This document shows positions 3,589 through 64,000 of a stretch of 64,000 nucleotides of DNA, one piece after another (position 1 is the stretch's first letter; every line of letters starts with the position of its first letter). The notes beneath the pieces were generated by a model. It was not told the DNA's origin. It did not search any database and saw nothing but the letters and a program-made list of their open reading frames with translations. Source of the DNA: Escherichia coli. GTDB lineage: Bacteria; Pseudomonadota; Gammaproteobacteria; Enterobacterales; Enterobacteriaceae. A program made the translations under genes and the position numbers. The stretch lies in NCBI RefSeq assembly GCF_017348835.2, contig NZ_CP071375.1. The stretch is one strand, 5' to 3'.

Positions 3589-5076
3589 ATGAATTTTCAT
3601 CATCTGGCTTACTGGCAGGATAAAGCGTTAAGTCTCGCCATTGAAACCCGCTTATTTATTAACGGTGAATATACTGCTGCGGCGGAAAATGAAACCTTTG
3701 AAACCGTTGATCCGGTCACCCAGGCACCGCTGGCGAAAATTGCCCGCGGCAAGAGCGTCGATATCGACCGTGCGGTGAGCGCAGCACGCGGCGTATTTGA
3801 ACGCGGCGACTGGTCACTCTCTTCTCCGGCTAAACGTAAAGCGGTACTGAATAAACTCGCCGATTTAATGGAAGCCAACGCCGAAGAGCTGGCACTGCTG
3901 GAAACTCTCGACACCGGCAAACCGATTCGTCACAGTCTGCGTGATGATATTCCCGGCGCGGCGCGCGCCATTCGCTGGTACGCCGAAGCGATCGACAAAG
4001 TGTATGGCGAAGTGGCGACCACCAGTAGCCATGAGCTGGCGATGATCGTGCGTGAACCGGTCGGCGTAATTGCCGCCATTGTACCGTGGAACTTCCCGCT
4101 GCTGCTGACCTGCTGGAAGCTTGGCCCGGCGCTGGCAGCAGGGAACAGCGTTGTCCTGAAACCGTCTGAAAAATCACCGCTCAGTGCGATTCGTCTCGCC
4201 GGGCTGGCTAAAGAGGCAGGCTTGCCGGATGGTGTGTTGAACGTGGTGACGGGTTTTGGTCATGAAGCGGGGCAGGCGCTGTCGCGTCATAACGATATCG
4301 ATGCCATCGCCTTTACCGGTTCAACCCGTACCGGGAAACAGCTGCTGAAAGATGCGGGCGACAGCAACATGAAACGCGTCTGGCTGGAAGCGGGCGGCAA
4401 AAGCGCCAACATCGTTTTCGCTGACTGCCCGGATTTGCAACAGGCGGCAAGCGCCACCGCAGCAGGCATCTTCTACAACCAGGGTCAGGTGTGCATCGCC
4501 GGAACGCGCCTGTTGCTGGAAGAGAGCATAGCTGATGAATTCTTAGCCCTGTTAAAACAGCAGGCGCAAAACTGGCAGCCGGGCCATCCACTTGATCCCG
4601 CAACCACCATGGGCACCTTAATCGACTGCGCCCACGCCGACTCGGTCCATAGCTTTATTCGGGAAGGCGAAAGCAAAGGGCAACTGTTGTTGGATGGCCG
4701 TAACGCCGGGCTGGCTGCCGCCATCGGCCCGACCATCTTTGTGGATGTAGACCCGAATGCGTCCTTAAGCCGCGAAGAGATTTTCGGTCCGGTGCTGGTT
4801 GTCACGCGTTTCACATCAGAAGAACAGGCGCTACAGCTTGCCAACGACAGCCAGTACGGCCTTGGCGCGGCGGTATGGACGCGCGACCTCTCCCGCGCGC
4901 ACCGCCTGAGCCGACGCCTGAAAGCCGGTTCCGTCTTCGTCAATAACTACAACGACGGCGATATGACCGTGCCGTTTGGCGGCTATAAGCAGAGCGGCAA
5001 CGGTCGCGACAAATCCCTGCATGCCCTTGAAAAATTCACCGAACTGAAAACCATCTGGATAAGCCTGGAGGCCTGA
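3589..5076 (+). CDS. puuC: gamma-glutamyl-gamma-aminobutyraldehyde dehydrogenase
   Basis: 495-aa aldehyde dehydrogenase starting MNFHHLAYWQDK; ATG at 3589. Confidence 0.95.
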   Translation: MNFHHLAYWQDKALSLAIETRLFINGEYTAAAENETFETVDPVTQAPLAKIARGKSVDIDRAVSAARGVFERGDWSLSSPAKRKAVLNKLADLMEANAEELALLETLDTGKPIRHSLRDDIPGAARAIRWYAEAIDKVYGEVATTSSHELAMIVREPVGVIAAIVPWNFPLLLTCWKLGPALAAGNSVVLKPSEKSPLSAIRLAGLAKEAGLPDGVLNVVTGFGHEAGQALSRHNDIDAIAFTGSTRTGKQLLKDAGDSNMKRVWLEAGGKSANIVFADCPDLQQAASATAAGIFYNQGQVCIAGTRLLLEESIADEFLALLKQQAQNWQPGHPLDPATTMGTLIDCAHADSVHSFIREGESKGQLLLDGRNAGLAAAIGPTIFVDVDPNASLSREEIFGPVLVVTRFTSEEQALQLANDSQYGLGAAVWTRDLSRAHRLSRRLKAGSVFVNNYNDGDMTVPFGGYKQSGNGRDKSLHALEKFTELKTIWISLEA

Positions 5077-5077
5077 A

Positions 5078-6358
5078 ATGACCGAACATACCAGCAGTTA
5101 CTACGCCGCCAGTGCGAATAAATACGCGCCATTCGACACGCTGAATGAGTCAATTTCCTGCGACGTTTGCGTGGTTGGCGGCGGCTATACCGGGCTGTCT
5201 TCCGCGCTACATCTGGCGGAAGCGGGCTTTGACGTAGTGGTTCTCGAAGCCTCACGCATCGGCTTTGGCGCCAGCGGACGCAACGGCGGGCAGCTTGTAA
5301 ACTCCTACAGCCGCGACATCGACGTGATCGAAAAAAGCTACGGCATGGACACCGCCCGTATGCTCGGCAGCATGATGTTCGAGGGTGGCGAGATCATCCG
5401 CGAACGTATCAAACGCTATCAGATTGACTGCGACTACCGCCCCGGCGGCCTGTTTGTGGCGATGAATGATAAACAGCTCGCCACACTCGAAGAGCAGAAA
5501 GAGAACTGGGAACGCTACGGCAATAAACAGCTGGAGCTGCTGGACGCCAACGCCATTCGCCGCGAGGTCGCCAGCGATCGCTACACTGGTGCGCTGCTGG
5601 ATCACAGCGGCGGGCATATTCACCCGCTGAACCTCGCCATTGGTGAAGCCGATGCCATTCGTCTCAACGGCGGACGTGTGTATGAGCTTTCTGAGGTGAC
5701 GCAGATCCAGCACACCACGCCCGCCGTGGTGCGTACTACCAAAGGCCAGGTGACGGCGAAGTATGTGATTGTCGCCGGGAATGCGTACCTGGGCGATAAA
5801 GTGGAGCCGGAACTGGCGAAGCGTAGTATGCCGTGCGGCACGCAGGTGATCACCACTGAGCGGCTGTCAGAAGATTTAGCCCGTTCGCTGATCCCGAAAA
5901 ACTACTGTGTGGAAGACTGTAACTATCTGCTTGATTACTACCGTCTTACCGCCGACAACCGTTTGCTGTACGGCGGCGGCGTGGTGTACGGCGCCCGCGA
6001 CCCGGATGACGTTGAGCGTCTTGTGGTGCCGAAACTGCTGAAAACCTTCCCGCAGCTGAAGGGCGTGAAAATTGATTACCGCTGGACGGGCAACTTCCTG
6101 CTGACCCTGTCACGGATGCCGCAGTTCGGTCGCCTCGATACCAACATCTATTACATGCAGGGTTACAGCGGCCACGGCGTCACCTGTACCCACCTCGCCG
6201 GGCGTCTGATTGCCGAACTGCTGCGCGGCGACGCCGAACGTTTCGATGCCTTCGCCAATCTGCCGCATTACCCGTTCCCCGGCGGGCGCACGCTGCGCGT
6301 ACCGTTTACCGCGATGGGCGCGGCTTATTACAGCCTGCGCGATCGTCTGGGCGTTTAA
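5078..6358 (+). CDS. puuB: gamma-glutamylputrescine oxidase (FAD-dependent)
   Basis: 426 aa, N-terminal GGGYTG dinucleotide-binding motif. Confidence 0.95.
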   Translation: MTEHTSSYYAASANKYAPFDTLNESISCDVCVVGGGYTGLSSALHLAEAGFDVVVLEASRIGFGASGRNGGQLVNSYSRDIDVIEKSYGMDTARMLGSMMFEGGEIIRERIKRYQIDCDYRPGGLFVAMNDKQLATLEEQKENWERYGNKQLELLDANAIRREVASDRYTGALLDHSGGHIHPLNLAIGEADAIRLNGGRVYELSEVTQIQHTTPAVVRTTKGQVTAKYVIVAGNAYLGDKVEPELAKRSMPCGTQVITTERLSEDLARSLIPKNYCVEDCNYLLDYYRLTADNRLLYGGGVVYGARDPDDVERLVVPKLLKTFPQLKGVKIDYRWTGNFLLTLSRMPQFGRLDTNIYYMQGYSGHGVTCTHLAGRLIAELLRGDAERFDAFANLPHYPFPGGRTLRVPFTAMGAAYYSLRDRLGV

Positions 6359-12763: not shown

Positions 12764-14056
12764 ATGATTAAATCAAAAATCGTGCTGTTATCAGCACTGG
12801 TTTCCTGCGCCCTGATTTCAGGCTGTAAAGAAGAAAATAAAACCCATGTATCCATCGAATTTATGCATTCTTCGGTGGAGCAGGAGCGTCAGGCAGTTAT
12901 CAGTAAATTGATTGCCCGTTTTGAAAAAGAAAACCCGGGCATCACCGTTAAACAAGTGCCAGTGGAAGAAGATGCCTATAACACCAAAGTCATCACCCTT
13001 TCACGTAGCGGCTCGCTGCCGGAAGTGATCGAAACCAGCCATGACTACGCCAAAGTTATGGACAAAGAGCAGCTTATCGATCGTAAAGCGGTTGCCACGG
13101 TCATCAGCAACGTTGGTGAAGGCGCGTTTTACGATGGCGTACTGCGTATTGTGCGCACCGAAGATGGGAGTGCCTGGACCGGTGTTCCTGTCAGCGCCTG
13201 GATTGGCGGCATCTGGTATCGCAAAGATGTGCTGGCAAAAGCCGGGCTGGAGGAGCCGAAAAACTGGCAGCAGCTGCTGGACGTTGCACAGAAACTGAAT
13301 GACCCGGCGAATAAAAAATACGGTATTGCGCTGCCTACAGCAGAAAGCGTGTTGACGGAACAATCCTTCTCCCAGTTTGCGTTATCCAACCAGGCCAACG
13401 TCTTTAACTCTGAAGGCAAAATCACCCTTGATACACCAGAGATGATGCAGGCGCTGACTTATTACCGCGACCTTGCCGCCAACACCATGCCGGGTTCTAA
13501 CGATATCATGGAAGTGAAAGACGCCTTTATGAACGGCACCGCGCCGATGGCGATTTACTCCACCTATATCCTTCCGGCTGTAATTAAAGAAGGCGACCCG
13601 AAAAACGTCGGTTTCGTGGTGCCAACCGAGAAAAACTCTGCGGTCTACGGCATGTTGACCTCGCTGACTATTACCGCCGGGCAAAAGACCGAAGAGACGG
13701 AAGCGGCGGAAAAATTTGTCACCTTTATGGAACAGGCGGACAACATTGCCGACTGGGTGATGATGTCGCCAGGCGCGGCGCTGCCAGTGAACAAAGCGGT
13801 GGTGACTACCGCCACCTGGAAAGACAACGACGTTATTAAGGCGCTGGGTGAACTACCGAATCAGCTAATCGGTGAACTGCCTAATATTCAGGTCTTTGGC
13901 GCAGTAGGGGATAAAAACTTTACCCGCATGGGCGATGTGACGGGTTCTGGTGTGGTGAGCTCCATGGTGCATAACGTCACCGTGGGTAAAGCCGATCTCC
14001 CTGGCACGCTACAAGCGAGCCAGAAAAAGTTGGATGAACTGATCGAACAGCACTAA
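12764..14056 (+). CDS. ycjN: ABC transporter periplasmic sugar-binding protein
   Basis: 430 aa with lipoprotein-type signal peptide. Confidence 0.9.
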   Translation: MIKSKIVLLSALVSCALISGCKEENKTHVSIEFMHSSVEQERQAVISKLIARFEKENPGITVKQVPVEEDAYNTKVITLSRSGSLPEVIETSHDYAKVMDKEQLIDRKAVATVISNVGEGAFYDGVLRIVRTEDGSAWTGVPVSAWIGGIWYRKDVLAKAGLEEPKNWQQLLDVAQKLNDPANKKYGIALPTAESVLTEQSFSQFALSNQANVFNSEGKITLDTPEMMQALTYYRDLAANTMPGSNDIMEVKDAFMNGTAPMAIYSTYILPAVIKEGDPKNVGFVVPTEKNSAVYGMLTSLTITAGQKTEETEAAEKFVTFMEQADNIADWVMMSPGAALPVNKAVVTTATWKDNDVIKALGELPNQLIGELPNIQVFGAVGDKNFTRMGDVTGSGVVSSMVHNVTVGKADLPGTLQASQKKLDELIEQH

Positions 14057-14076
14057 ACCCAGGACAGGAATCCGCA

Positions 14077-14958
14077 ATGAACAGGCTTTTTTCAGGTCGT
14101 TCCGATATGCCGTTTGCGCTGCTGCTTCTCGCGCCCAGCTTATTACTGCTGGGCGGTCTGGTGGCGTGGCCGATGGTGTCGAATATCGAAATCAGTTTTT
14201 TACGTCTGCCGCTCAATCCCAACATCGAGTCAACGTTTGTTGGGGTGAGTAACTATGTGCGCATTCTCTCCGATCCCGGCTTCTGGCACTCGCTGTGGAT
14301 GACGGTCTGGTATACGGCGCTGGTGGTGGCGGGCAGCACCGTGCTCGGGCTGGCCGTGGCGATGTTTTTCAACCGCGAGTTCCGCCTGCGCAAAACCGCG
14401 CGTTCGCTGGTGATCCTCTCCTACGTAACGCCGTCCATTTCGCTGGTGTTTGCCTGGAAATACATGTTCAACAACGGCTACGGCATTGTGAACTACCTCG
14501 GCGTCGATCTTCTGCATCTCTATGAGCAGGCACCGCTGTGGTTCGATAATCCGGGCAGTAGCTTTGTGCTGGTGGTGCTGTTCGCCATCTGGCGCTACTT
14601 CCCGTATGCCTTTATCTCGTTTCTGGCGATTTTGCAGACCATCGACAAATCGCTGTACGAAGCGGCAGAGATGGATGGCGCTAATGCCTGGCAGCGGTTT
14701 CGCATCGTCACGCTGCCCGCAATTATGCCGGTCCTGGCGACGGTGGTGACTCTGCGCACCATCTGGATGTTTTACATGTTCGCTGATGTTTATCTGCTGA
14801 CAACCAAGGTCGATATTCTCGGTGTCTATCTCTACAAAACCGCCTTTGCCTTTAATGACTTAGGGAAAGCGGCGGCGATCTCGGTGGTGCTCTTCATCAT
14901 TATTTTCGCTGTCATTCTGCTGACCAGGAAACGGGTGAACCTCAATGGCAACAAATAA
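14077..14958 (+). CDS. ycjO: ABC transporter permease
   Basis: 293 aa, MalF-type permease. Confidence 0.9.
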   Translation: MNRLFSGRSDMPFALLLLAPSLLLLGGLVAWPMVSNIEISFLRLPLNPNIESTFVGVSNYVRILSDPGFWHSLWMTVWYTALVVAGSTVLGLAVAMFFNREFRLRKTARSLVILSYVTPSISLVFAWKYMFNNGYGIVNYLGVDLLHLYEQAPLWFDNPGSSFVLVVLFAIWRYFPYAFISFLAILQTIDKSLYEAAEMDGANAWQRFRIVTLPAIMPVLATVVTLRTIWMFYMFADVYLLTTKVDILGVYLYKTAFAFNDLGKAAAISVVLFIIIFAVILLTRKRVNLNGNK

Positions 14959-15787
14959 ACGCACACTCAGTCGTATCGGATTTTACTGCGGGCTGGCGCT
15001 GTTTCTCATCATCACGCTGTTTCCGTTTTTTGTGATGCTGATGACCTCGTTCAAGAGCGCAAAAGAGGCGATCTCGCTGCATCCTACGCTGCTGCCGCAA
15101 CAGTGGACGCTGGAGCATTACGTCGACATTTTTAACCCGGTGATATTCCCGTTTGTCGACTATTTCCGTAACAGCATGGTGGTGTCGGTAGTTTCATCCG
15201 TGGTGGCGGTATTTCTCGGCATTCTCGGGGCTTACGCGCTTTCCCGCCTGCGCTTTAAAGGGCGGATGACCATCAACGCCAGCTTTTACACGGTATACAT
15301 GTTCTCCGGCATTTTGCTGGTGGTGCCGCTGTTCAAAATCATCACCGCGCTTGGCATTTACGACACCGAGATGGCGCTGATCATTACCATGGTGACGCAA
15401 ACCCTGCCCACCGCCGTGTTTATGCTGAAAAGCTACTTCGACACCATCCCTGATGAGATCGAAGAAGCGGCGATGATGGATGGCCTCAACCGTCTGCAAA
15501 TTATCTTCCGTATCACCGTGCCCCTGGCGATGTCCGGGCTGATATCGGTGTTCGTCTACTGCTTTATGGTGGCGTGGAACGACTATCTGTTTGCGTCGAT
15601 TTTCCTCTCCAGCGCCAGCAATTTCACCTTACCAGTGGGCCTGAACGCGCTGTTCAGTACGCCTGATTACATCTGGGGACGCATGATGGCGGCCTCGCTG
15701 GTGACCGCATTGCCGGTGGTGATTATGTATGCGCTTTCGGAACGTTTTATTAAGAGTGGTTTGACCGCCGGTGGCGTGAAGGGCTAA
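14945..15787 (+). CDS. ycjP: ABC transporter permease
   Basis: 280 aa, MalG-type permease; start overlaps ycjO. Confidence 0.9.
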   Translation: MATNKRTLSRIGFYCGLALFLIITLFPFFVMLMTSFKSAKEAISLHPTLLPQQWTLEHYVDIFNPVIFPFVDYFRNSMVVSVVSSVVAVFLGILGAYALSRLRFKGRMTINASFYTVYMFSGILLVVPLFKIITALGIYDTEMALIITMVTQTLPTAVFMLKSYFDTIPDEIEEAAMMDGLNRLQIIFRITVPLAMSGLISVFVYCFMVAWNDYLFASIFLSSASNFTLPVGLNALFSTPDYIWGRMMAASLVTALPVVIMYALSERFIKSGLTAGGVKG

Positions 15788-15817
15788 AGCGGCCAGTTTA
15801 TTGACAAGGAGTTTTAA

Positions 15818-16813
15818 ATGAAAAAGTTAGTAGCCACGGCACCGCGCGTAGCGGCGCTGGTTGAGTATGAAGACAGGGCGATTTTAGCCAATGAAGTGAA
15901 GATCCGCGTGCGTTTCGGCGCGCCGAAGCACGGGACGGAAGTGGTCGATTTCCGCGCCGCCAGCCCGTTTATCGATGAAGACTTTAACGGTGAATGGCAG
16001 ATGTTCACCCCGCGCCCGGCAGATGCGCCGCGCGGCATTGAGTTTGGCAAATTCCAGCTTGGCAACATGGTGGTTGGCGACATTATCGAATGCGGCAGCG
16101 CCGTTACCGATTACGCGGTGGGCGACAGCGTATGCGGCTACGGCCCGCTTTCCGAAACGGTCATCATTAACGCGGTGAATAACTACAAGCTGCGCAAAAT
16201 GCCGAAAGGCAGTTCGTGGAAAAACGCCGTCTGCTACGACCCGGCGCAGTTTGCCATGAGCGGCGTGCGCGATGCCAACGTGCGCGTAGGGGATTTTGTG
16301 GTGGTGGTAGGGCTTGGCGCGATTGGTCAAATTGCCATCCAACTGGCGAAACGCGCTGGCGCGTCTGTGGTGATTGGCGTCGATCCTATCGCCCATCGCT
16401 GTGATATTGCCCGTCGCCACGGCGCGGATTTCTGCCTTAACCCCATCGGCACTGACGTAGGGAAAGAGATCAAAACGCTGACCGGCAAGCAGGGTGCCGA
16501 TGTGATTATCGAAACCAGCGGCTACGCCGACGCGCTGCAATCGGCACTGCGCGGCCTGGCTTACGGCGGCACCATCTCCTATGTCGCGTTTGCCAAACCG
16601 TTTGCCGAAGGTTTCAACCTCGGACGCGAAGCGCATTTCAATAACGCCAAAATTGTCTTCTCCCGCGCGTGCAGCGAACCGAACCCGGATTATCCGCGCT
16701 GGAGCCGTAAGCGTATTGAAGAAACCTGCTGGGAACTGCTGATGAACGGTTATCTCAATTGTGAAGATTTAATCGACCCGGTGGTGACCTTTGCTAACAG
16801 CCCGGAAAGCTAA
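15818..16813 (+). CDS. ycjQ: zinc-type dehydrogenase YcjQ (D-guloside 3-dehydrogenase), ending 19 codons early at an in-frame TAA
   Basis: 331-aa ORF; the same frame continues in-frame after the TAA at 16811-16813 for 18 codons (MQYVDQHPEQSIKMGVTF) to a second stop at 16868-16870, giving the 350 aa I recall for the K-12 protein. Confidence 0.85.
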   Translation: MKKLVATAPRVAALVEYEDRAILANEVKIRVRFGAPKHGTEVVDFRAASPFIDEDFNGEWQMFTPRPADAPRGIEFGKFQLGNMVVGDIIECGSAVTDYAVGDSVCGYGPLSETVIINAVNNYKLRKMPKGSSWKNAVCYDPAQFAMSGVRDANVRVGDFVVVVGLGAIGQIAIQLAKRAGASVVIGVDPIAHRCDIARRHGADFCLNPIGTDVGKEIKTLTGKQGADVIIETSGYADALQSALRGLAYGGTISYVAFAKPFAEGFNLGREAHFNNAKIVFSRACSEPNPDYPRWSRKRIEETCWELLMNGYLNCEDLIDPVVTFANSPES

Positions 16814-16888
16814 ATGCAGTACGTTGACCAGCATCCGGAACAGAGCATCAAAATGGGCGTTACGTTTTAATTCAAAGGAATGAAAAAA

Positions 16889-17677
16889 ATGAAAATCGGC
16901 ACACAGAATCAGGCGTTCTTTCCGGAAAACATTCTAGAGAAATTTCGTTATATCAAAGAGATGGGCTTCGATGGTTTTGAAATCGACGGCAAACTGCTGG
17001 TCAACAACATCGAAGAAGTGAAAGCGGCGATCAAAGAAACTGGTTTACCGGTGACCACCGCCTGCGGTGGCTATAACGGCTGGATTGGCGACTTTATCGA
17101 AGAGCGTCGTCTTAATGGCTTAAAGCAGATAGAGCGCATTCTCGAAGCGCTGGCAGAAGTGGGCGGTAAAGGTATCGTCGTTCCGGCAGCGTGGGGCATG
17201 TTTACCTTCCGCTTACCGCCGATGACTTCACCGCGCAGCCTGGACGGCGACCGTAAAATGGTGAGCGATTCCCTGCGCGTACTGGAACAGGTAGCCGCGC
17301 GTACCGGAACCGTGGTGTATCTCGAACCGTTAAACCGTTATCAGGATCACATGATCAACACCCTCGCCGATGCCCGCCGTTACATCGTCGAAAACGATCT
17401 TAAACATGTGCAGATTATCGGCGATTTCTATCACATGAATATCGAAGAAGATAACCTGGCGCAGGCGCTGCATGACAACCGCGACCTGCTCGGTCATGTG
17501 CATATTGCCGATAACCATCGTTATCAGCCGGGCAGCGGCACCCTGGATTTCCACGCGCTGTTTGAACAACTGCGCGCCGATAATTATCAGGGCTATGTGG
17601 TGTATGAAGGGCGCATTCGGGCAGAAGATCCTGCCCAGGCGTACCGTGATTCTTTGGCCTGGTTGCGTACCTGCTAA
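16889..17677 (+). CDS. ycjR: sugar epimerase, xylose isomerase-like TIM barrel (3-dehydro-D-guloside 4-epimerase)
   Basis: 262 aa from MKIGTQNQAFF. Confidence 0.9.
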   Translation: MKIGTQNQAFFPENILEKFRYIKEMGFDGFEIDGKLLVNNIEEVKAAIKETGLPVTTACGGYNGWIGDFIEERRLNGLKQIERILEALAEVGGKGIVVPAAWGMFTFRLPPMTSPRSLDGDRKMVSDSLRVLEQVAARTGTVVYLEPLNRYQDHMINTLADARRYIVENDLKHVQIIGDFYHMNIEEDNLAQALHDNRDLLGHVHIADNHRYQPGSGTLDFHALFEQLRADNYQGYVVYEGRIRAEDPAQAYRDSLAWLRTC

Positions 17678-17686
17678 GAGGTCTTT

Positions 17687-18742
17687 GTGAAAAGTGCAAT
17701 GACAAGCTCTCCGCTGCGGGTCGCGATCATAGGCGCGGGCCAGGTGGCGGATAAAGTTCATGCTTCGTACTACTGCACCCGCAACGATCTGGAACTGGTG
17801 GCTGTCTGTGACAGCCGCCTTTCCCAGGCGCAGGCGCTGGCAGATAAATACGGTAATGCATCCGTGTGGGACGATCCGCAGGCCATGCTGCTGGCGGTGA
17901 AACCTGACGTGGTTAGCGTCTGCTCACCTAACCGTTTTCATTACGAACATACCCTGATGGCACTGGAAGCGGGCTGCCATGTGATGTGCGAAAAACCGCC
18001 CGCCATGACGCCAGAACAGGCGCGGGAAATGTGCGATATCGCGCGCAAACAGGGCAAGGTGCTGGCCTACGACTTTCACCATCGTTTTGCGCTCGATACG
18101 CAACAGCTGCGTGAACAGGTGACCAACGGCGTTTTGGGAGAGATTTACGTTACCACCGCCCGCGCCCTGCGTCGCTGCGGCGTTCCCGGCTGGGGTGTCT
18201 TTACCAATAAAGAACTGCAGGGTGGTGGCCCGCTGATCGACATCGGCATTCATATGCTGGATGCTGCAATGTATGTGCTGGGCTTTCCGGCGGTGAAAAG
18301 CGTGAATGCGCATAGTTTTCAAAAGATCGGCACGCAAAAGAGCTGTGGTCAATTTGGCGAGTGGGATCCGGCAACTTACAGCGTCGAAGATTCGCTGTTT
18401 GGCACCATTGAATTTCATAACGGCGGCATTCTGTGGCTGGAAACGTCATTTGCACTCAACATCCGCGAACAGTCGATTATGAACGTCAGCTTTTGCGGTG
18501 ATAAAGCCGGTGCGACGCTGTTTCCAGCACATATCTACACCGATAACAACGGTGAATTAATGACGCTGATGCAACGGGAAATGGCAGACGACAACCGCCA
18601 TTTGCGCAGCATGGAAGCCTTTATCAATCACGTACAGGGCAAGCCCGTGATGATAGCCGATGCCGAGCAGGGGTACATCATCCAGCAACTGGTGGCGGCG
18701 TTGTATCAATCCGCAGAAACAGGGACGCGTGTGGAATTATGA
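17687..18742 (+). CDS. ycjS: Gfo/Idh/MocA-family NAD-dependent oxidoreductase (D-glucoside 3-dehydrogenase)
   Basis: 351 aa, GTG start, Rossmann motif IIGAGQVA. Confidence 0.9.
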   Translation: MKSAMTSSPLRVAIIGAGQVADKVHASYYCTRNDLELVAVCDSRLSQAQALADKYGNASVWDDPQAMLLAVKPDVVSVCSPNRFHYEHTLMALEAGCHVMCEKPPAMTPEQAREMCDIARKQGKVLAYDFHHRFALDTQQLREQVTNGVLGEIYVTTARALRRCGVPGWGVFTNKELQGGGPLIDIGIHMLDAAMYVLGFPAVKSVNAHSFQKIGTQKSCGQFGEWDPATYSVEDSLFGTIEFHNGGILWLETSFALNIREQSIMNVSFCGDKAGATLFPAHIYTDNNGELMTLMQREMADDNRHLRSMEAFINHVQGKPVMIADAEQGYIIQQLVAALYQSAETGTRVEL

Positions 18743-32399: not shown

Positions 32400-33330
32400 T
32401 TATCCCAGATGGGTGTTGAAAAAAGGAATAACTTTTTCCAGCGCCTCCTGAACTGCTTCCGGTTTGTCATACAGTTCATAATGTGAGAAATCGGGTAACG
32501 AAACTAACTGACGATCCTGCGAAACCATCGCCCGGCCATAGACTTCCAGTCCATCACGATAAGCACCGAAGGCACCGACTTTTTCACCAACTACTACCAT
32601 CACCGGCTGAGTCAGTAACACTTCAGTAAATGCGAAGGCATCCCAGGCCAGCGTTTTCTGTGCATGTGAGAACAACATTTTTGTCGCACCTCCCGGTTGT
32701 TGCCCGCGTGGTGTTTTATAGTAGTCAGTTGCTTCATAAACATCGCGTTCGGTCAGTCCATGGGCTTTTGCTGCATCCAGGCTGGCGGGAAGTAATTCGT
32801 TGATCTGTAATTCTCCACCACGAGCCTCTTTGGTTCGTTGCGACGCCATTGCATTCAATGCGCCAATCGGATCGTAATTGCTGAAACCTTCCCGAAAAAG
32901 ACGCCCGATATTAACACCCGTAATACTCACTACAGCTTTAATTCGTTTTTCTGTCAGCGCGGCATTAATGGCATAGCCCCCCCCCACACACACCCAGCAC
33001 GCCAATGCGTTCAGCATCAACATATGGCAGAGTTACTGCATAATCGATAACACGGCTAATATCCTCTACGCGCTGTGTCGGATCTTCTATCCAACGAGGC
33101 TCCCCACCAGATTCTCCCTGGAAACTGGCGTCATAAGCGAGAACGACATAGCCTTTTTCAGCCAATGCCTTGCCATAGATATTGCCAGACGTCTGCTCCT
33201 TACAACTGCCAAAAGGATGGACGCTGATAATCGCCGGATACTGTTTTGACTCATCAAAATTTGGTGGAAACTGAATATTGGCAGCAATATGCCAGGCCAT
33301 ATCACTATTGCGGATTTGAATATGTTTCAT
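32400..33330 (-). pseudogene. dienelactone-hydrolase-like alpha/beta hydrolase, paralog of ycjY, disrupted by a frameshift in a C9 homopolymer
   Basis: Two overlapping ORFs (32965-33330 and 32400-33023) each cover half of the fold; frames switch in the C9 run at 32977-32985 (G9 on the coding strand) at the GVCGGGG-Y nucleophile motif; paralog ycjY reads GICAGAGY there. Confidence 0.75.
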
Positions 33331-54938: not shown

Positions 54939-55009
54939 GAACACCTCCATTATTATTTCCAGTGGTTTGAACCGCCCCGGGTTTCCTGGAGAGTGTTTTA
55001 TCTGTGAAC

Positions 55010-55897
55010 TCAGGCTGCCAGATCATTATTTCCGATGGAAGCATAATAAGCTTTTTCTGCTTCTGCCGGAGGAATATGGCCCAGCCTTTCCAGCAATCGT
55101 CGATTGTTATACCAGTCCACCCACGTGAGTGTGGCCAGTTCCACTTCTGTCCGGTTTTTCCAGCTCTTACGGTGTATTACCTCCGCTTTGTAAAGACCAT
55201 TGATGCTCTCAGCCATCGCGTTGTCATACGAGTCGCCAGTACTCCCTGTTGATGCCAGTAATCCGGCTTCCTTAAGCCGCTGCGTGTAGGCCAGCGATAC
55301 ATACTGAGAACCTTTATCACTGTGATGGATTGTGCCGGACGGCCGACGGGCCCACAACGCCTGCTCCAGTGCATCCAGCACGAATGTTGTTTCCATGGAT
55401 GATGAGACCTGCCATCCCACGATGTATCCGGCGAACACATCAATGATGAACGCCACATAAACGAAGCCCTGCCATGTGCTTACCCAGGTAAAATCAGCCA
55501 CCCACAACTGGTCTGGACGTTCTGCCACGAACTGACGGTTTACGCGGTCGCATGCGGCAACGGCTTTCCGGCTGACGGTAGTGCGGACCTTTTTACCCCG
55601 GAGAACACCGGCAAGTCCCATAACTGCCATGAGACGTGCCACAGTGCATCTGGCCACTCTGATACCTTCCCGTAACAACTGACGCCAGACTTTACGCACA
55701 CCGTATACCTGGTGATTTTCATCGTATACGCGCTGTATCTCTTTCTTCAGCCAGTCATCGTGCTGCGCACGGGCACTGCGTTTATCCGGATGATGTCGCT
55801 GTTGCTGACAATGGTAATACGTTGACGGGGCAATATGCAGTTCGCTGCATACCGGTCCGACCCCGTACTGCTCACGCAGCTTATCCAGCAGTGGCAT
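55010..55897 (-). CDS. IS3-family transposase OrfB (DDE integrase domain)
   Basis: 295-aa frame with rve-type catalytic region; start overlaps the orfA stop (TAATG) next to an A-rich slippery stretch. Confidence 0.9.
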   Translation of the reverse strand: MPLLDKLREQYGVGPVCSELHIAPSTYYHCQQQRHHPDKRSARAQHDDWLKKEIQRVYDENHQVYGVRKVWRQLLREGIRVARCTVARLMAVMGLAGVLRGKKVRTTVSRKAVAACDRVNRQFVAERPDQLWVADFTWVSTWQGFVYVAFIIDVFAGYIVGWQVSSSMETTFVLDALEQALWARRPSGTIHHSDKGSQYVSLAYTQRLKEAGLLASTGSTGDSYDNAMAESINGLYKAEVIHRKSWKNRTEVELATLTWVDWYNNRRLLERLGHIPPAEAEKAYYASIGNNDLAA

Positions 55898-56223
55898 TAT
55901 TTTTTCCAGAGGCGGTCGAACTCCGCCTTCGCAAAATAAGCGGAAGCCTGGCGAAGGATATCGTTACTGCGGCGCAGTTCACGATTTTCACGTTCCAGCT
56001 CTTTCAGACGCTGACGTTCAGCGGTGGTGAGTCCACCATCACCACTCCCGGTATCCCGCTCATGCTGGCGAACCCAGACACGCAGAGTCTCCGGCGTACA
56101 GCCAATCTTTGGGGCAATGGAACAAATTGCCGCCCACTGTGAGTCATATTCATCCTGACTTTCCAGAACCATACGAATCGCCCGCTGACGGACTTCGGGG
56201 GAAAAACGAGTATTTTTAGTCAT
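55897..56223 (-). CDS. IS3-family transposase OrfA (HTH)
   Basis: 108 aa [42 protein letters not shown]... recognised as IS629/IS1203-type OrfA. Confidence 0.9.
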
Positions 56224-56277
56224 CCTGTTTACCTCTTTCTCAGGGAGTTTAGTCTCCAGGATTTCCGGGGCGGTTCA

Positions 56278-56494: not shown

Positions 56495-57304
56495 TTATTC
56501 CTCTGAATTATCGATTACACTGTATTCCCCGGTTAATACAGAGGAATCTGCAGGATCGATTGTCAGTGGTTCCTTTTCATCCATTGATACTGCACGCTGG
56601 ATCTCAATTGATACGGGCAGATATTTGAACAGGCGACGAATAGCCGTTTTCTTTGCCATTTCTTCCCAGTGAGTTACCCACGGCCCGTTATTACCAGCTT
56701 TACTCAGGCTGCGCACCAGCTCAATCTGTTTGCGCGTCATAACTTCAAACTGAGTACCTCCGTCTTTCAGTCTTGCGACAGCATAGACGTGGGTAACCGG
56801 GGCATCTTCGTTTTCTCCCGGGCGGTGTATTAACTTTTCATCAAGGCCAAATTCGAAGCTAAACTCGTCACCTTCACGGACAACACGGGCTGACAGGCTG
56901 GCGATTTGACCAGAACGGCGAGCCAGATCAATCATGCCGCGATAGCCAATGATTAGCTGAACGTTCTTTTTACCGCTCTTTTCGTTTTTATTACCAAAAG
57001 GCAGTAAATATGCATGACCGAGGGCGCTACCTGGCTCAAGTCCGAGCTGTGAACACTGTACGATCGCACTGACAAAACTCATAGTGTCACAGTTTCCTAA
57101 CGCCGGAACTTTACGAATTTCTGTGGTGGCGATACGGATCATACGTTCAGCCGTCATATGGCGTGGAAGAGCTGCTGCCAGTTGCTCTTTCATTGATGGC
57201 TGGTTAATAAAACTAATCACGTCGCTATTTTTAACTGCTGCTGGTGCACGGTTTCCCTGAGTTTTTTGCAGATCGGCTTTTGCGATTGGTGGTTGCTTAG
57301 TCAT
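56495..57304 (-). CDS. recT: recombinase RecT (single-strand annealing protein)
   Basis: 269 aa from [18 protein letters not shown], sequence recognised. Confidence 0.95.
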
Positions 57305-58436
57305 TTGCATATTCCTTAGCCCAGCGGGGCAGTGATAATGTCTTAATAGCTGGCCATTCATCGGTATTCAGGCAGTCAGACAGGGTTCGCAGATTGCGGT
57401 GATATTCCTGTTGACCTGCCAGTTTTGCTTCTTCGCCCATCATGAAAATTTCAACCGGATAACGTCCGCATTCAATAGTTGTGCTGGCAACCAGAAAAAC
57501 GAAAGTTGGCTGCACTCCAAACTGTGCTTCATAACCGTCACTGTAGAATGCATCCTGAACGTGATAGCGGTAGTCGTAATAAGCGGTTTTGAATCGTTGA
57601 ATATCCGCCGTAGTTTTCACGTCCATGATCCAGTGAAATTCAGGGATAATTTTGTCCGGACGGCACCGACACAAAATTCCTGTTTCAGGATCTTCCCAGT
57701 AAATTGATGATTCAGCGTGTCCGGCGCTTTCAACAAGCCATTGCCCCAGCGGCAAAGCCATAACGCTTTGATACATGAGTTCAATTTTCCGGCCTTCTTC
57801 CGCAGTGATAACCGTTTTTCCTGTGCTTGCGCATTCCATCAGAAACGCTTTCTCTTCTTCTTTTCCGGCGTTTGTACGGCGGTTAAATTCAGGTGCTACG
57901 ATAAAGCGGTTACTGAATTCTTCCGGTTCAAGTACCCGGCAGTGGAAAGCAGTTCCTAAATCGAGCGTTTTTGTCTTTGTGGTGTCCACGGGGGCATTTT
58001 TACGCCACAAATATAGTGCCGGAGTATCAGCAATGTCATCGAGCTGAGACTTACTGATACCGGGACCCGCGTGGTAATTCTCATTCGAAATTCCGTAATA
58101 AATACCTGGCTCTATGTCTTCTACGATTACGGGATCTGCGACTTCGCCAGTTTCATCACTGCAATCGCGATGCGGATCGCTGCCAGCATTCTCATTGTGC
58201 GGATGTTCAGCGCCTTCCATTTCCTCCGGATCATTTTCCTTAGCTTCAACCTGACTCTCTTCATCGAATGTTTCCTGGTATGTTGCGTCGCCCATCACCG
58301 CACCACAGTCAGGGCAGTTATCCCCGCCAGTCTGGCCGCAGGCATTGCAGGCTATTTCCGGTTCCTGTTGCACTACTGGCTCAGGTTGATTCATATCTGG
58401 GCTGGTTTTTTCCGTTTCTGGCTGGTTCTGGTACAC
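57297..58436 (-). CDS. recE: exonuclease VIII RecE, C-terminal nuclease portion only (5'-truncated)
   Basis: 379-aa frame ending ...[11 protein letters not shown] and overlapping the recT start; K-12 RecE is 866 aa; frame open upstream only to a stop at 58521-58523; first start-like codon is GTG. Confidence 0.8.
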
Positions 58437-58474
58437 ACAATCGCGAGTCTGGATCCCCTTACCTGGCTGACACC

Positions 58475-59227
58475 ATGCATTTGTCAGCAGAGGAGCATGG
58501 TGCGTATTTGTTGCTGATGTTCAATTACTGGCAAACAGGAAAGCCAATACCTAAAAACAGGCTGGCAAAAATTGCCCGTCTGACTAACGAGCGATGGGCT
58601 GATGTTGAACCATCCTTGCAGGAGTTTTTTTGCGATAACGGCGAGGAATGGGTGCATCTTCGGATTGAGGAAGATCTGGCATCAGTCAGGGAAAAATTAA
58701 CCAAAAAATCAGCCGCAGGAAAAGCATCTGTTCAGGCCAGAAGAAGCAGAAAGGAAGCAGATGTTCAAACAAAACAAGAGAGAAATTTAACAGGTGTTCA
58801 AACAGATGTTGAAGTGGTGTTTGAACATGATGTCAACACAAAGGCAACTAATAAAGATACAGATAAAGATCTAAAAACAGATCCCCCCCTAAATCCCCCC
58901 CGGGGGAATCGAGGTGTCAAAAAGTTTGACCCTCTGGATATTGCTTTGCCGAACTGGATTTCTGTCTCGCTTTGGCGTGAGTGGGTTGAATTTCGCCAGG
59001 CATTGCGAAAACCGATTCGAACGGAGCAGGGCGCTAACGGGGCGATACGGGAGCTGGAAAAATTCCGCCAGCAGGGTTTTTCACCTGAGCAGGTGATTCG
59101 ACACAGCATCGCCAATGAATACCAGGGCTTGTTCGCGCCAAAAGGTGTTCGACCTGAGACGTTACTCCGACAGGTTAACACCGTCTCGTTACCGGATAGT
59201 GCGATCCCGCCAGGCTTCAGGGGGTAA
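58475..59227 (+). CDS. ydaU: prophage replication protein, DUF1376 plus DnaT-like C-terminal domain (YdaU-like)
   Basis: 250 aa from [19 protein letters not shown]; upstream in-frame residues (SPYLADT) still look like DUF1376, suggesting the true N-terminus is missing. Confidence 0.6.
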
Positions 59228-59233
59228 CTGACC

Positions 59234-59980
59234 ATGAAAAATATTGCGGCAGGCGGCATTCTTGAACGTATCCGCAGACTGGCCCCGCCACATGTAACCG
59301 CCCCATTCAAAACGGTAGCGGAGTGGCGCGAGTGGCAACTTTCCGAAGGCCAGAAACGTTGTGAGGAGATCAACCGTCAGAATCGTCAGTTGCGGGTGGA
59401 AAAAATTCTGAATCGCTCCGGCATCCAGCCGTTGCACCGCAAATGCTCGTTTTCGAATTACCAGGTGCAGAACGAAGGGCAGCGATACGCGTTGAGTCAG
59501 GCGAAATCCATCGCTGATGAACTGATGACCGGGTGTACAAATTTTGCGTTCAGCGGAAAACCTGGTACCGGAAAAAACCATCTGGCGGCGGCTATCGGGA
59601 ATCGCCTGCTGAAAGATGGCCAGACAGTGATTGTGGTTACCGTGGCTGATGTCATGAGTGCCCTACACGCCAGCTATGACGACGGGCAATCAGGCGAAAA
59701 ATTTTTGCGGGAACTGTGCCAAGTGGATCTGCTGGTTCTTGATGAAATTGGCATTCAGCGCGAGACAAAAAACGAGCAGGTGGTGCTGCACCAGATTGTT
59801 GATCGCCGGACAGCGTCGATGCGCAGCGTGGGGATGCTGACAAACCTGAATTATGAGGCCATGAAAACATTGCTCGGCGAGAGGATTATGGATCGCATGA
59901 CCATGAACGGCGGGCGATGGGTGAATTTTAACTGGGAGAGCTGGCGTCCGAATGTCGTCCAGCCAGGAATTGCGAAGTAA
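59234..59980 (+). CDS. ydaV: DnaC-like replication protein (helicase loader homolog)
   Basis: 248 aa, colinear with DnaC as I recall it ([17 protein letters not shown], Walker [26 protein letters not shown]). Confidence 0.85.
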
Positions 59981-61404: not shown

Positions 61405-62559
61405 ATGGATTATTTATCAGAAGTGTTAAAAATCATTGAAGGTGCAACAAAGGCAAATGCTTCGATGGCTAGTAATTATGCTGGGTTGCTGGCAGATAAG
61501 CTCGAACAAAAAGGGGAGGTCAAGCAAGCCAGAATGATAAGAGAAAGGTTGCTTAGAGCTCCCCAGGCGTTGGCAGGAGCTCAAAGGGCTGGAGGTGGGA
61601 TATCTCTGGGCTCATTACCGGTAGATATTGATAGTCGACTCAACACTGTTGATGTCAGTTATCCTAAATTAGACAGTTCAGAGATTTTTCTGCCTGCAGC
61701 AATCAGTACCCGTGTTGAAGAGTTTATCACTAATGTTCAACGTTATGATGAGTTTGTTAAAGCTGATGCAGCATTGCCGAGTCGTATGCTCGTGTATGGA
61801 AAGCCAGGAACAGGTAAGACTATGTTATCTAAGTACATCGCTACCCGCTTAGATTTTCCACTTCTTACAGTGCGTTGCGATACTTTGATTAGTAGTTTAT
61901 TGGGACAAACCAGCAAAAATCTTAGACAGGTTTTCGATTATGTAATGCAGAGGCCATCAGTGCTTTTTTTAGACGAATTTGATGCTTTAGCTGGAGCAAG
62001 AGGTAATGAGAGAGATATAGGTGAGCTTCAGCGAGTTGTCATTTCACTATTGCAGAATATGGATGCGGCATCAGAGGATACGGTAATTATTGCCTCAACT
62101 AACCATGAGCAACTTCTGGATCCTGCAATCTGGAGGCGATTTAGCTTCAGAATTCCAATGCCTCTGCCTGACATACATCAGAGAGAGTTAATTTGGAAAA
62201 ATCGTTTAAAGAATATGATATGTAGCGATCTAGATTTAAGTGATTTATCAAGAAAATCGGAAGGATTATCCGGAGCAATAATTGAACAGGTGAGCTTGGA
62301 TGCACGTAGGGATGCAGTTATTGAAGGTGCAAGTGTGATAAATCACCACAAATTGTATAGGCGTTTGTATCTTGCTCAATCGCTTATGGAAGGTGTAAAT
62401 TTAAGCACTTACGAAGATGAAATTCGTTGGTTACGTTCTAAAGATAAAAAATTATTTTCTATCAGAGTTCTTGCTAATTTGTACAAACTTACATCAAGAG
62501 TAATTTCAAACATTCTGAAGGAGTCAGGAGCATATGAGCAGAAGGGGTACACAGTTTAG
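61405..62559 (+). CDS. classic-clade AAA ATPase with ~125-aa N-terminal extension; first gene of the ATPase-protease cassette
   Basis: 384 aa; Walker A GKPGTGKT (61798-61821), Walker B VLFLDEFD (D190/E191 at 61972-61977), sensor-1 IIASTN, arginine-finger region DPAIWRRF; GGGAG RBS; AT-rich. Confidence 0.85.
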   Translation: MDYLSEVLKIIEGATKANASMASNYAGLLADKLEQKGEVKQARMIRERLLRAPQALAGAQRAGGGISLGSLPVDIDSRLNTVDVSYPKLDSSEIFLPAAISTRVEEFITNVQRYDEFVKADAALPSRMLVYGKPGTGKTMLSKYIATRLDFPLLTVRCDTLISSLLGQTSKNLRQVFDYVMQRPSVLFLDEFDALAGARGNERDIGELQRVVISLLQNMDAASEDTVIIASTNHEQLLDPAIWRRFSFRIPMPLPDIHQRELIWKNRLKNMICSDLDLSDLSRKSEGLSGAIIEQVSLDARRDAVIEGASVINHHKLYRRLYLAQSLMEGVNLSTYEDEIRWLRSKDKKLFSIRVLANLYKLTSRVISNILKESGAYEQKGYTV

Positions 62560-64000
62560 TAACGCAAAAGTTACAAACCCAACGTTAAGAATCCCTTTTT
62601 CCAGTAGTGACTTGGGTGCAATAGTAAACGCTGGCGGTGGGGCAAAGGTATTGGTTGATGTAACAGCCGAATATAGACAAGGGCTAGTAAGAAATTTAAC
62701 AACCAGTAAACATTATTTAGAATCCAAACTTTCAGAGTACCCTGGAAGCTTGGGTACTTTGGTTTTCAAATTAAGAGACCAGGGAATAGCCAAAACGCAT
62801 AGGCCGAACAAAATTGCTCAAGAGGCTGGATTGCAAAATGCCGGTCATGCCAAAATAGATGAAATGTTGGTTGCTGCTCATGCCGGCTGTTTTGACGTAT
62901 TAGAGTCAGTCATTTTAAATCGGAATATTAAAGCGATTTTGGCTAATCTAAGCGCGATTGAGCGCATTGAACCTTGGGATGAGAATAGGAAGGTTCCGGG
63001 AGGCACTGATGGTTTGTTTGAATCATCAAACATCCTTGTACGACTATTTGAGTACACAGGTGAAGATGCAACTTACAACAACTATGAAAACGTTATTTCT
63101 ATATTAGAACAATACGGAGTTAAATATGATGAAATTAGACAAAAATGTGGTCTTCCCTTATTAAGGATAATGGATTTATCCCCAAGTGATAGATATATAT
63201 TAGACATTCTCATTGATTACCCGGGTATAAGAACGTTAATTCCAGAACCAAAATATTCAGCATTCCCGGTTAGTGTAAGTGATTCTGTTGGCATTGAAAC
63301 AAATAGCTTTCCCGTACCATCAGAAGAATTACCCATTGTTGCTGTATTTGACACTGGGGTAAGCCCCATCGCGGCAACAATTACTCCTTGGGTAGTGAGT
63401 AGGGAAACATACGTAATTCCTCCTGATACGAGTTATGAACATGGGACTATGGTGTCTTCATTGATATCAGGCGCTCATTTTTTAAATGACAATCATCCAT
63501 GGATTCCTGATACAAAATCTAAAATCCATGATGTTTGTGCTTTAGATGAAAATGGATCTTATATATCAGATTTAATTCTGAGGCTAGCAGATGCTGTAAA
63601 TAAAAGACCAGATATAAAAGTCTGGAATTTGTCTTTGGGAGGCGGACCATGTAATGAGCAGATGTTTAGTGATTTTGCGATGGAGTTAGATCGGCTCAGC
63701 GATAAATTTGGTATTTTGTTTGTAGTTGCTGCAGGTAATTATGTAGATGAACCTATACGTACATGGCCAAATCCTGATCCGCTTGGAGGTGCTGATTTAA
63801 TTTCCTCTCCTGGAGAGTCAGTCCGAGCACTAACAGTTGGTTCAGTTTCTCATATGGAAGCTAATGATGCTTTAAGTGAAATTGGAACACCGACACCATA
63901 TACTCGTCGTGGCCCTGGTCCTGTATTTACTCCAAAGCCAGATATAATCCATGCTGGCGGTGGGGTTCATAGACCTTGGAATGTAGGAGCAAGCAGTTTA
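62534..64000 (+). CDS. subtilisin-like (S8) serine peptidase, partial (runs off window end); second gene of the cassette
   Basis: ATG at 62534 overlaps the ATPase 3' end by 26 nt; catalytic Asp in VAVFDTG (63350-63352), His in YEHGTMVSS (63440-63442), S8 motifs VWNLSLGG and VVAAGN (Asn at 63737-63739); catalytic Ser expected beyond 64000; ~270 aa precede the catalytic core. Confidence 0.8.
   Translation, partial: MSRRGTQFSNAKVTNPTLRIPFSSSDLGAIVNAGGGAKVLVDVTAEYRQGLVRNLTTSKHYLESKLSEYPGSLGTLVFKLRDQGIAKTHRPNKIAQEAGLQNAGHAKIDEMLVAAHAGCFDVLESVILNRNIKAILANLSAIERIEPWDENRKVPGGTDGLFESSNILVRLFEYTGEDATYNNYENVISILEQYGVKYDEIRQKCGLPLLRIMDLSPSDRYILDILIDYPGIRTLIPEPKYSAFPVSVSDSVGIETNSFPVPSEELPIVAVFDTGVSPIAATITPWVVSRETYVIPPDTSYEHGTMVSSLISGAHFLNDNHPWIPDTKSKIHDVCALDENGSYISDLILRLADAVNKRPDIKVWNLSLGGGPCNEQMFSDFAMELDRLSDKFGILFVVAAGNYVDEPIRTWPNPDPLGGADLISSPGESVRALTVGSVSHMEANDALSEIGTPTPYTRRGPGPVFTPKPDIIHAGGGVHRPWNVGASSL

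Follow-up and report, generated by a model that had tools for sequence, protein, structure and literature searches.

Does the truncated recE gene that abuts ydaU in the Rac prophage of the Escherichia coli contig NZ_CP071375.1 (assembly GCF_017348835.2) represent a deletion or a native arrangement of genes, and what fixed the position of the joint? The window, as we call the whole stretch of 64,000 nucleotides (nt) analysed here, shows 3 mismatches over its 64,000 positions with respect to E. coli PE164 (NZ_CP114128.1), isolated from a pig in Nanjing. Ordinary chromosome, running from puu and psp by way of ycj, fnr and abg to dbpA, fills its first 50 kilobases (kb), and its final 11 kb carry ttcA, intR, xisR, rcbA, an element of the IS3 family of insertion sequences (IS), ralR, recT, a recE fragment (recE'), a truncated ydaU (ydaU'), ydaV, DUF1627 and DUF977 genes and the pair iteA/iteS. 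These final 11 kb are the Rac prophage at its usual ttcA site, since they are integrated next to ttcA with the left-arm series intR-xisR-rcbA-ralR-recT-recE; the products of intR, xisR, rcbA and recT share their protein accessions with K-12. As detailed below, the locus very probably records a recent deletion, peculiar to this lineage, of about 5.26 kb from the interior of this cryptic Rac, closed by joining at a TT dinucleotide, the remnants of which are most likely silent, and in which the loss of RacR was tolerated together with that of ydaS/ydaT.

BLAST alignment to the loci of K-12 (L002) and FORC 064 (L007) placed the breakpoints. The recE homology ended at 58460 and the ydaU homology began at 58459, the dinucleotide TT at 58459..58460 being common to both parents. 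With respect to K-12, the window lacks 5,258 base pairs (bp), positions 13462-18719 of the K-12 locus, with 13461 joined to 18720. This DNA comprises recE codons 1-479, racC, ydaE, kilR, sieB, ydaF, a small phage gene (ydaG), racR, ydaS, ydaT and ydaU codons 1-30. The nine genes from racC to ydaT sit between recE and ydaU in both K-12 and FORC 064, and the comparison bore out the preliminary description of this DNA, which had listed racC, kilR, sieB, racR and ydaS/T as absent from the interval; the DNA of the racR/ydaS/ydaT switch and of kilR is missing between 58460 and 58461. That description had also pointed to 58437-58474 as a possible site of microhomology. Alignment to intact Rac located the endpoints within it, at 58459-58460, where the exact TT is the sole exact microhomology and nothing longer was found. 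The joint reads GGATCCCCTT/ACCTGGCTGAC (the slash marks the break); the left parent goes on with TACCC, and GCTGA precedes the right parent. Two other ways of reading the joint were discarded. A crossover within the 5-bp TTACC, present in both parents with an offset of one base, would yield three Ts, whereas the window has two, and cleavage of the IS200/IS605 type at a TTAC/ATAC motif does not match a joint that is TT/ACC and not TTAC/C.

The junction cuts two conserved coding domains. To its left, the recE remnant (57297..58460, minus strand) retains 387 codons, 480-866, plus the stop, and its protein is identical to that of K-12. Its candidate starts are a GTG at 58436 (379 amino acids, aa), which is the codon for Val488 in K-12 RecE, and an ATG at 58394 (365 aa). 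The open reading frame (ORF) 57297-58436 thus opens 379 codons before its stop, as previously described, and the recE homology extends 24 nt past its start, to 58460. Beyond the junction, 20 antisense-ydaU codons without a start codon remain open in the recE frame (58461..58520, minus strand), until an in-frame TGA at 58521..58523 closes it upstream; the plus strand reads TCA there, and the spacing (58521-57297 = 1224 = 3 x 408) agrees with the stop assigned earlier to this frame. The 379-aa ORF matched the NF007259 exodeoxyribonuclease VIII model over model positions 500-877 only, and its score of 849.5 bits fell short of the curated cut-off of 1269, so it does not qualify as full-length RecE; PGAP had already marked the remnant in PE164 as a pseudogene with a missing N-terminus. 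Residues 126-387 of the remnant aligned with positions 4-265 of the 265 in the chain of PDB 3H4R (E = 2e-181), that is, the crystallised PD-(D/E)XK nuclease domain is complete. According to a review, this nuclease domain (residues 564-866) can genetically replace full-length RecE, and efficient linear-linear recombination requires the full-length protein (PMC11611040). The earlier statement that the retained segment covers the nuclease domain sufficient for recombination is upheld by the full 3H4R alignment together with this reported substitution. The adjacent recT (56495..57304, minus strand, 269 aa; NF007351, 464 bits; PGAP accession WP_000166319.1, the same as in K-12) is intact, with an 8-nt overlap onto the recE stop.

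To the right of the junction, the first usable ydaU ATG lies at 58475 and corresponds to Met36 of the 285-aa K-12 YdaU, 14 nt from the junction and 39 nt from the GTG of recE'. The ydaU remnant (58475..59227, plus strand) encodes 250 aa, K-12 residues 36-285, its codons 1-30 having been deleted, and matched Pfam DUF1376 (PF07120) at model positions 15-86 of 86, as compared with 1-86 for K-12 YdaU; the domain is incomplete, its first 14 positions being gone. These data agree with the earlier view that a plus-strand gene without its N-terminus starts within about 40 bp of recE'. The downstream ydaV (59234..59980, plus strand), encoding a DnaC/IstB-like ATPase, is intact (NF009043, 507 bits). We also observed that the ydaU' frame stays open through the junction into antisense recE, giving a 319-aa ORF (58268-59227, plus strand, ATG at 58268) in which 64 novel residues are joined to YLADT and the remaining YdaU'; it is probably a chance in-frame fusion.

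The preliminary description set a deletion that removed the immunity/kil region and fused the flanks beside a naturally different module arrangement as the alternative. Lambdoid prophages are mosaic, and Rac gene content varies widely among strains according to Krishnamurthi et al. 2017 (PMC5700373), which would suit the alternative. It is nevertheless effectively refuted: two conserved domains are broken by the junction, identity to intact Rac exceeds 97-99.9% on both flanks, few genomes carry the junction, and several further junctions with different left ends exist. The flanks are collinear with the intact Rac of K-12 and FORC 064, with 99.9% identity in the left arm; over its first 1.5 kb the right arm shows 99.3% identity to FORC 064, whose recE-to-ydaU region is intact. 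Of 5,426 complete E. coli genomes, only two, PE164 and F2_81, carried the 120-nt junction as one contiguous stretch, while a 200-nt probe centred on the ydaU site was uninterrupted in 741 genomes. This disparity, together with the intact FORC 064, implies that the deletion-bearing arrangement is derived and not ancestral; relatives sharing the short form as an ancestral state were not found. The event would also be recent, since RecE' carries no amino-acid changes and the left arm differs from K-12 by 1 base in 2,183 nt. PE164 and F2_81 are both pig isolates and both carry the same nearby IS insertion, and the junction was also present in several draft assemblies (L014-L018); the same junction with the same IS insertion in F2_81 and several drafts points to one clonal event. 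One of these descendants (L014, GCA_014105405.1) also lacks ralR, recT and most of recE'; the final 552 bp of its recE remnant lie flush against the IS element, a pattern suggestive of a second deletion next to the IS.

The deletion took out the racR repressor, both divergent early promoter regions, the kil region, the 5' 55% of recE and ydaU codons 1-30. Nothing remains of the racR-ydaS intergenic region or of the DNA between it and recE, the stretch in which the divergent early promoters of Rac lie. Because the natural promoters of both flanking operons were deleted, recE'(480-866)-recT and ydaU'(36-285)-ydaV are probably silent remnants. The loss of RacR, an essential repressor, would have been tolerated as the toxic ydaS/ydaT went too; in support of this idea, PMC5700373 reports that E. 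coli genomes always have racR and ydaS together and that racR is dispensable only in the absence of ydaS/T.

The opposite outcome, that a new promoter acquired through the deletion turned recE'-recT on and established a constitutive RecET recombination pathway as in sbcA strains, appears very improbable. The retained RecE does cover the domain able to replace the full-length protein, recT is intact and overlaps the recE stop, and classical sbcA mutations activate recET, as mentioned in PMC3945230. However, the DNA upstream of recE' is antisense ydaU-ydaV, and a consensus scan of its minus strand from 58460 to 59400 found no promoter-like site; over 57200-59400 the scan returned a single promoter-like site, inside recE', when 2.4 were expected from shuffled sequence, so that in the promoter and terminator scan promoters did not exceed the shuffle expectation. 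Moreover, no start codon occurs between the upstream stop and the internal GTG/ATG, no Shine-Dalgarno-like sequence was seen by eye upstream of either on the minus strand, and other lineages (L011, L024) delete into recT, which argues against selection for RecET function.

Two considerations count against our interpretation of a TT-joined deletion with silent remnants. Transcription of recE'-recT could still come from read-through or from an antisense promoter in ydaU-ydaV that went unrecognised. In the right arm, identity to the nearest intact relative is no higher than 99.3-99.4%, and the assignment of TT assumes a K-12/FORC 064-like parent at both sites.

This right end is where the locus departs from the routine prophage decay, already flagged by PGAP, that the deletion itself is. 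Using a naturally deleted locus as a probe over complete E. coli genomes for joins of recE to ydaT or ydaU, we found 21 genomes in which they are joined at short distance, in seven classes with different endpoints; as the left arm reaches at least 99% identity in about 1,100 genomes, such deletions are rare. A second look-up, of contigs encoding the 250-aa YdaU' (two allelic forms) or a 257-aa variant, revealed seven different left partners joined to an identical right end, TT/ACCTGGCTGACACCATG, which corresponds to 18720-18722 of the K-12 locus, 58459-58461 of the window and ydaU codon 30/31. The same right end, ACCTGGCTGAC after TT, was present in loci L004, L011, L019, L022-L025, L030 and L031. 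In K-12 locus coordinates, the left partners are recE 13461 in this window and its clonal relatives, recE 13679 in FDN-24 and FDN-9, a diverged recE near 13573 (L030, L031), recE 14387 (L023), recT 12260 (L011, L019, L024) and ydaF 16769 (L025), to which is added, in L022, a foreign exonuclease module broken just upstream of an unrelated 429-aa exonuclease gene. The window break therefore shares its exact nucleotide with at least six other independent Rac deletions. Every readable left parent has TT at the crossover, and four have GGTT, resembling the GATT of the right parent.

Within the span of about 105 nt to which the protein-based look-ups are confined in detecting right ends, seven of eight deletion events share one position, the eighth being at 18690; under a uniform model we calculated the probability of this coincidence as roughly 1e-11. 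In the less biased survey of complete genomes, two of the seven classes share the right-end position. No IS was found at the break site in about 50 contexts examined, among them 21 metagenome loci, all of which (21/21) proved intact at the site when scanned for more junction types or IS-bearing alleles. A second copy of the hot-spot sequence was not found elsewhere in the K-12 Rac locus, so that there is no att-like partner, and the 2-nt overlap argues against recombination by Int at a secondary site. In the literature searched we did not find a description of this nucleotide-precise recurrent right breakpoint, which is what the present analysis adds to the deletion itself.

The surroundings of the break offer several features that might bear on its recurrence. 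A CCTGG sequence, a site of Dcm/EcoRII type, begins 1 nt right of the break (58462..58466). Six nt right of the break lies an inverted repeat, GCTGACA-N9-TGTCAGC (58467..58489), with a 7-bp stem and the ydaU' ATG in its loop, which was predicted in the minimum-energy and centroid DNA folds of both strands. About 260-370 nt right of the break, in the ydaU linker (58722..58828), are iteron-like repeats of AAGCAGATGTTCAA, four direct copies and one inverted, the first three spaced 33 nt, followed by an A/T-rich stretch and C-tracts to about 58901; they constitute a candidate phage origin that has been retained and may be oriJ, the Rac origin. As side observations, CCWGG occurs within 6 nt of one endpoint in five of the first seven deletion classes (K-12 locus 18477, 18723, 14306 and 19257), against a local density of 1 per 277 bp, a proximity that was noticed after the fact and that two further junctions (L008, L009) do not show. 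In NCTC9087 (L012, LR134231.1) an IS3 of 1,258 bp (4737-5994) with the target duplication GAC sits in ydaU, only 10 nt from the recurrent break on its right side, and the immunity region there is otherwise intact.

How would such joints have formed? The pattern points to illegitimate joining at the 2-nt microhomology TT, in which the right partner is the break site at ydaU codon 30/31, fixed and used repeatedly, and the left partner an arbitrary TT inside recE. A 3' end terminating in AA, whether of a stalled nascent strand or of a cut, probably paired with TT further left and was then extended. Two sub-mechanisms could supply that end, and in a rough ranking we place replication template switching, itself a tentative proposal, ahead of a site-specific cut followed by microhomology end joining, for which our confidence is lower still. 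Under template switching, a leftward nascent strand would stop past the hairpin with the tail ...CCAGGTAA-3', and its terminal AA would re-pair with TT further left; hairpin formation perhaps aids dissociation, and resumed synthesis would skip the intervening DNA. The strand could be the lagging one, or a leading strand moving leftward from a phage origin inside ydaU. The fixed right end with varied left ends, each with TT, the 7-bp-stem hairpin 6 nt from the break and the lack of an IS or nuclease footprint all fit, as do other right ends (K-12 locus 18471, 19303 and 19258), which by eye lie at or just 5' of short inverted repeats, and the iteron-like repeats could be the origin from which synthesis starts. 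On the other hand, a skip of 1.9-6.5 kb is long by the standards of simple slippage, the small hairpin sits in a region of unexceptional folding energy (z of -1.1 and -0.4), and the nucleotide precision of the stall is left unexplained.

In the second sub-mechanism, the site-specific cut could be cleavage by the transposase of an IS3-family element once inserted at TTA (K-12 locus 18720-18722) and later removed, left flank included, by the IS-excision enhancer (IEE), or the work of another sequence- or structure-specific nuclease. According to PMC9943667, IEE promotes microhomology joining with 2-6 nt of homology, the IS-adjacent deletions arising from IEE-dependent excision range from a few nt to more than 40 kb, and over 33% of E. 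coli assemblies carry IEE. IS-adjacent deletions classically show one constant end and differing opposite ends, an active-looking IS629-like element lies 2.2 kb away in the Rac of the window, the IS3 of NCTC9087 is only 10 nt from the hot spot, and all seven joints have the short TT microhomology. The deletion end, however, coincides with neither an IS terminus nor a documented insertion site, that IS3 being the nearest, and the contexts surveyed, including the intact metagenome loci, hold no IS exactly at the site; on this view an IS would have had to land at one and the same nucleotide, and then vanish entirely, in each of seven events with differing allelic backgrounds. A clean cut of EcoRII type at the adjacent CCTGG is also a misfit, as it cannot retain the A at 58461 that precedes the site.

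We speculate that TT/ACCTGG at ydaU codon 30/31, by the hairpin and about 300 nt from the iteron-like repeats, is a point where Rac-type prophages break, or where their replication is arrested, either as programmed or as dictated by structure, and that it repeatedly seeds deletions of the immunity/toxin region, an idea to which we assign a low probability. One possibility is that leftward synthesis stops there when the dormant origin fires after derepression; another, that the site is the target of an unrecognised site-specific nuclease.

The deletion documents one more decay step of a well-known cryptic prophage and illustrates that a strain can carry recT and the RecE nuclease domain without their normal control switch. 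The recurrent breakpoint carries more weight: if independent lineages keep breaking Rac at the same nucleotide, the loss of its toxic control region is not purely random, and the site would be a simple natural model of how precise break or arrest points shape the domestication of E. coli prophages. Should the programmed or structure-determined break point prove true, it would be a built-in route to convergent Rac domestication.

Other features of the window complete the description of this Rac. The IS3-family element, with IS629-like ends (TGAACCGCCCCGG...), spans 1,310 bp (54968..56277, minus strand) at the ralR/rcbA overlap and is flanked by a 3-bp GTT target duplication; by this insertion the RalR toxin lost its last 10 residues and gained 15 IS-derived residues. 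The slot after the DUF977 gene (61405-64000 in the window; loci L003-L007, L011, L023 and L030) has a cargo that varies among Rac variants: iteA/iteS here, and elsewhere either TetR, adenosine deaminase, Ham1 and SIR2; or GmrSD; or DUF262; or an ATP-dependent nuclease together with a DNA methyltransferase. The slot has the look of a hot spot for defence genes. Outside the prophage, an alpha/beta hydrolase gene (32400-33330) is annotated as frameshifted in PE164.

The closest known system is K-12 Rac, whose order is intR-xisR-rcbA-ralR-recT-recE-racC-ydaE-kilR-sieB-ydaF-ydaG-racR-ydaS-ydaT-ydaU-ydaV. The window shares with it the site next to ttcA and the gene order of both arms, with an identity of 99.95% in the left arm and 97.2% in the right arm. 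In contrast to K-12, it lacks the 5,258 bp from recE codon 479 to ydaU codon 30, the 3' end of its ralR is interrupted by the IS629-like element, and after the DUF977 gene it has the iteA/iteS anti-phage pair where K-12 has the ydaW remnant, rzoD and trkG. Natural E. coli strains that have lost the toxin/repressor modules of Rac (Krishnamurthi et al. 2017, PMC5700373) likewise lack racR, ydaS, ydaT and kilR together; the available portions of that work, a presence/absence gene matrix for 154 genomes, report neither breakpoints nor a recurrent one. With the IEE-dependent IS-adjacent deletions (Kusumoto 2011 as cited in PMC9943667; Calvo 2023), the Rac deletions have in common the fixed end and variable other end, the 2-nt microhomology, the kilobase loss and an IS3-family neighbour; unlike them, the alleles seen have no IS or IS scar at the fixed end, and the IS629-like copy 2.2 kb off is intact with its target duplication. 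The sbcA mutations of Rac also rearrange or mutate the region upstream of recE, but they turn recET on, whereas the deletion in the window removes the natural promoter region and brings no recognisable substitute. As for the C-terminal RecE fragments used in recombineering and structural work (564-866; 3H4R), the remnant 480-866 holds the whole domain with identical sequence, but it came about naturally, and neither a promoter nor a ribosome-binding site is evident for it. Finally, the position of the iteron-like repeats within ydaU is similar to the arrangement in lambda, whose ori lies inside gene O.

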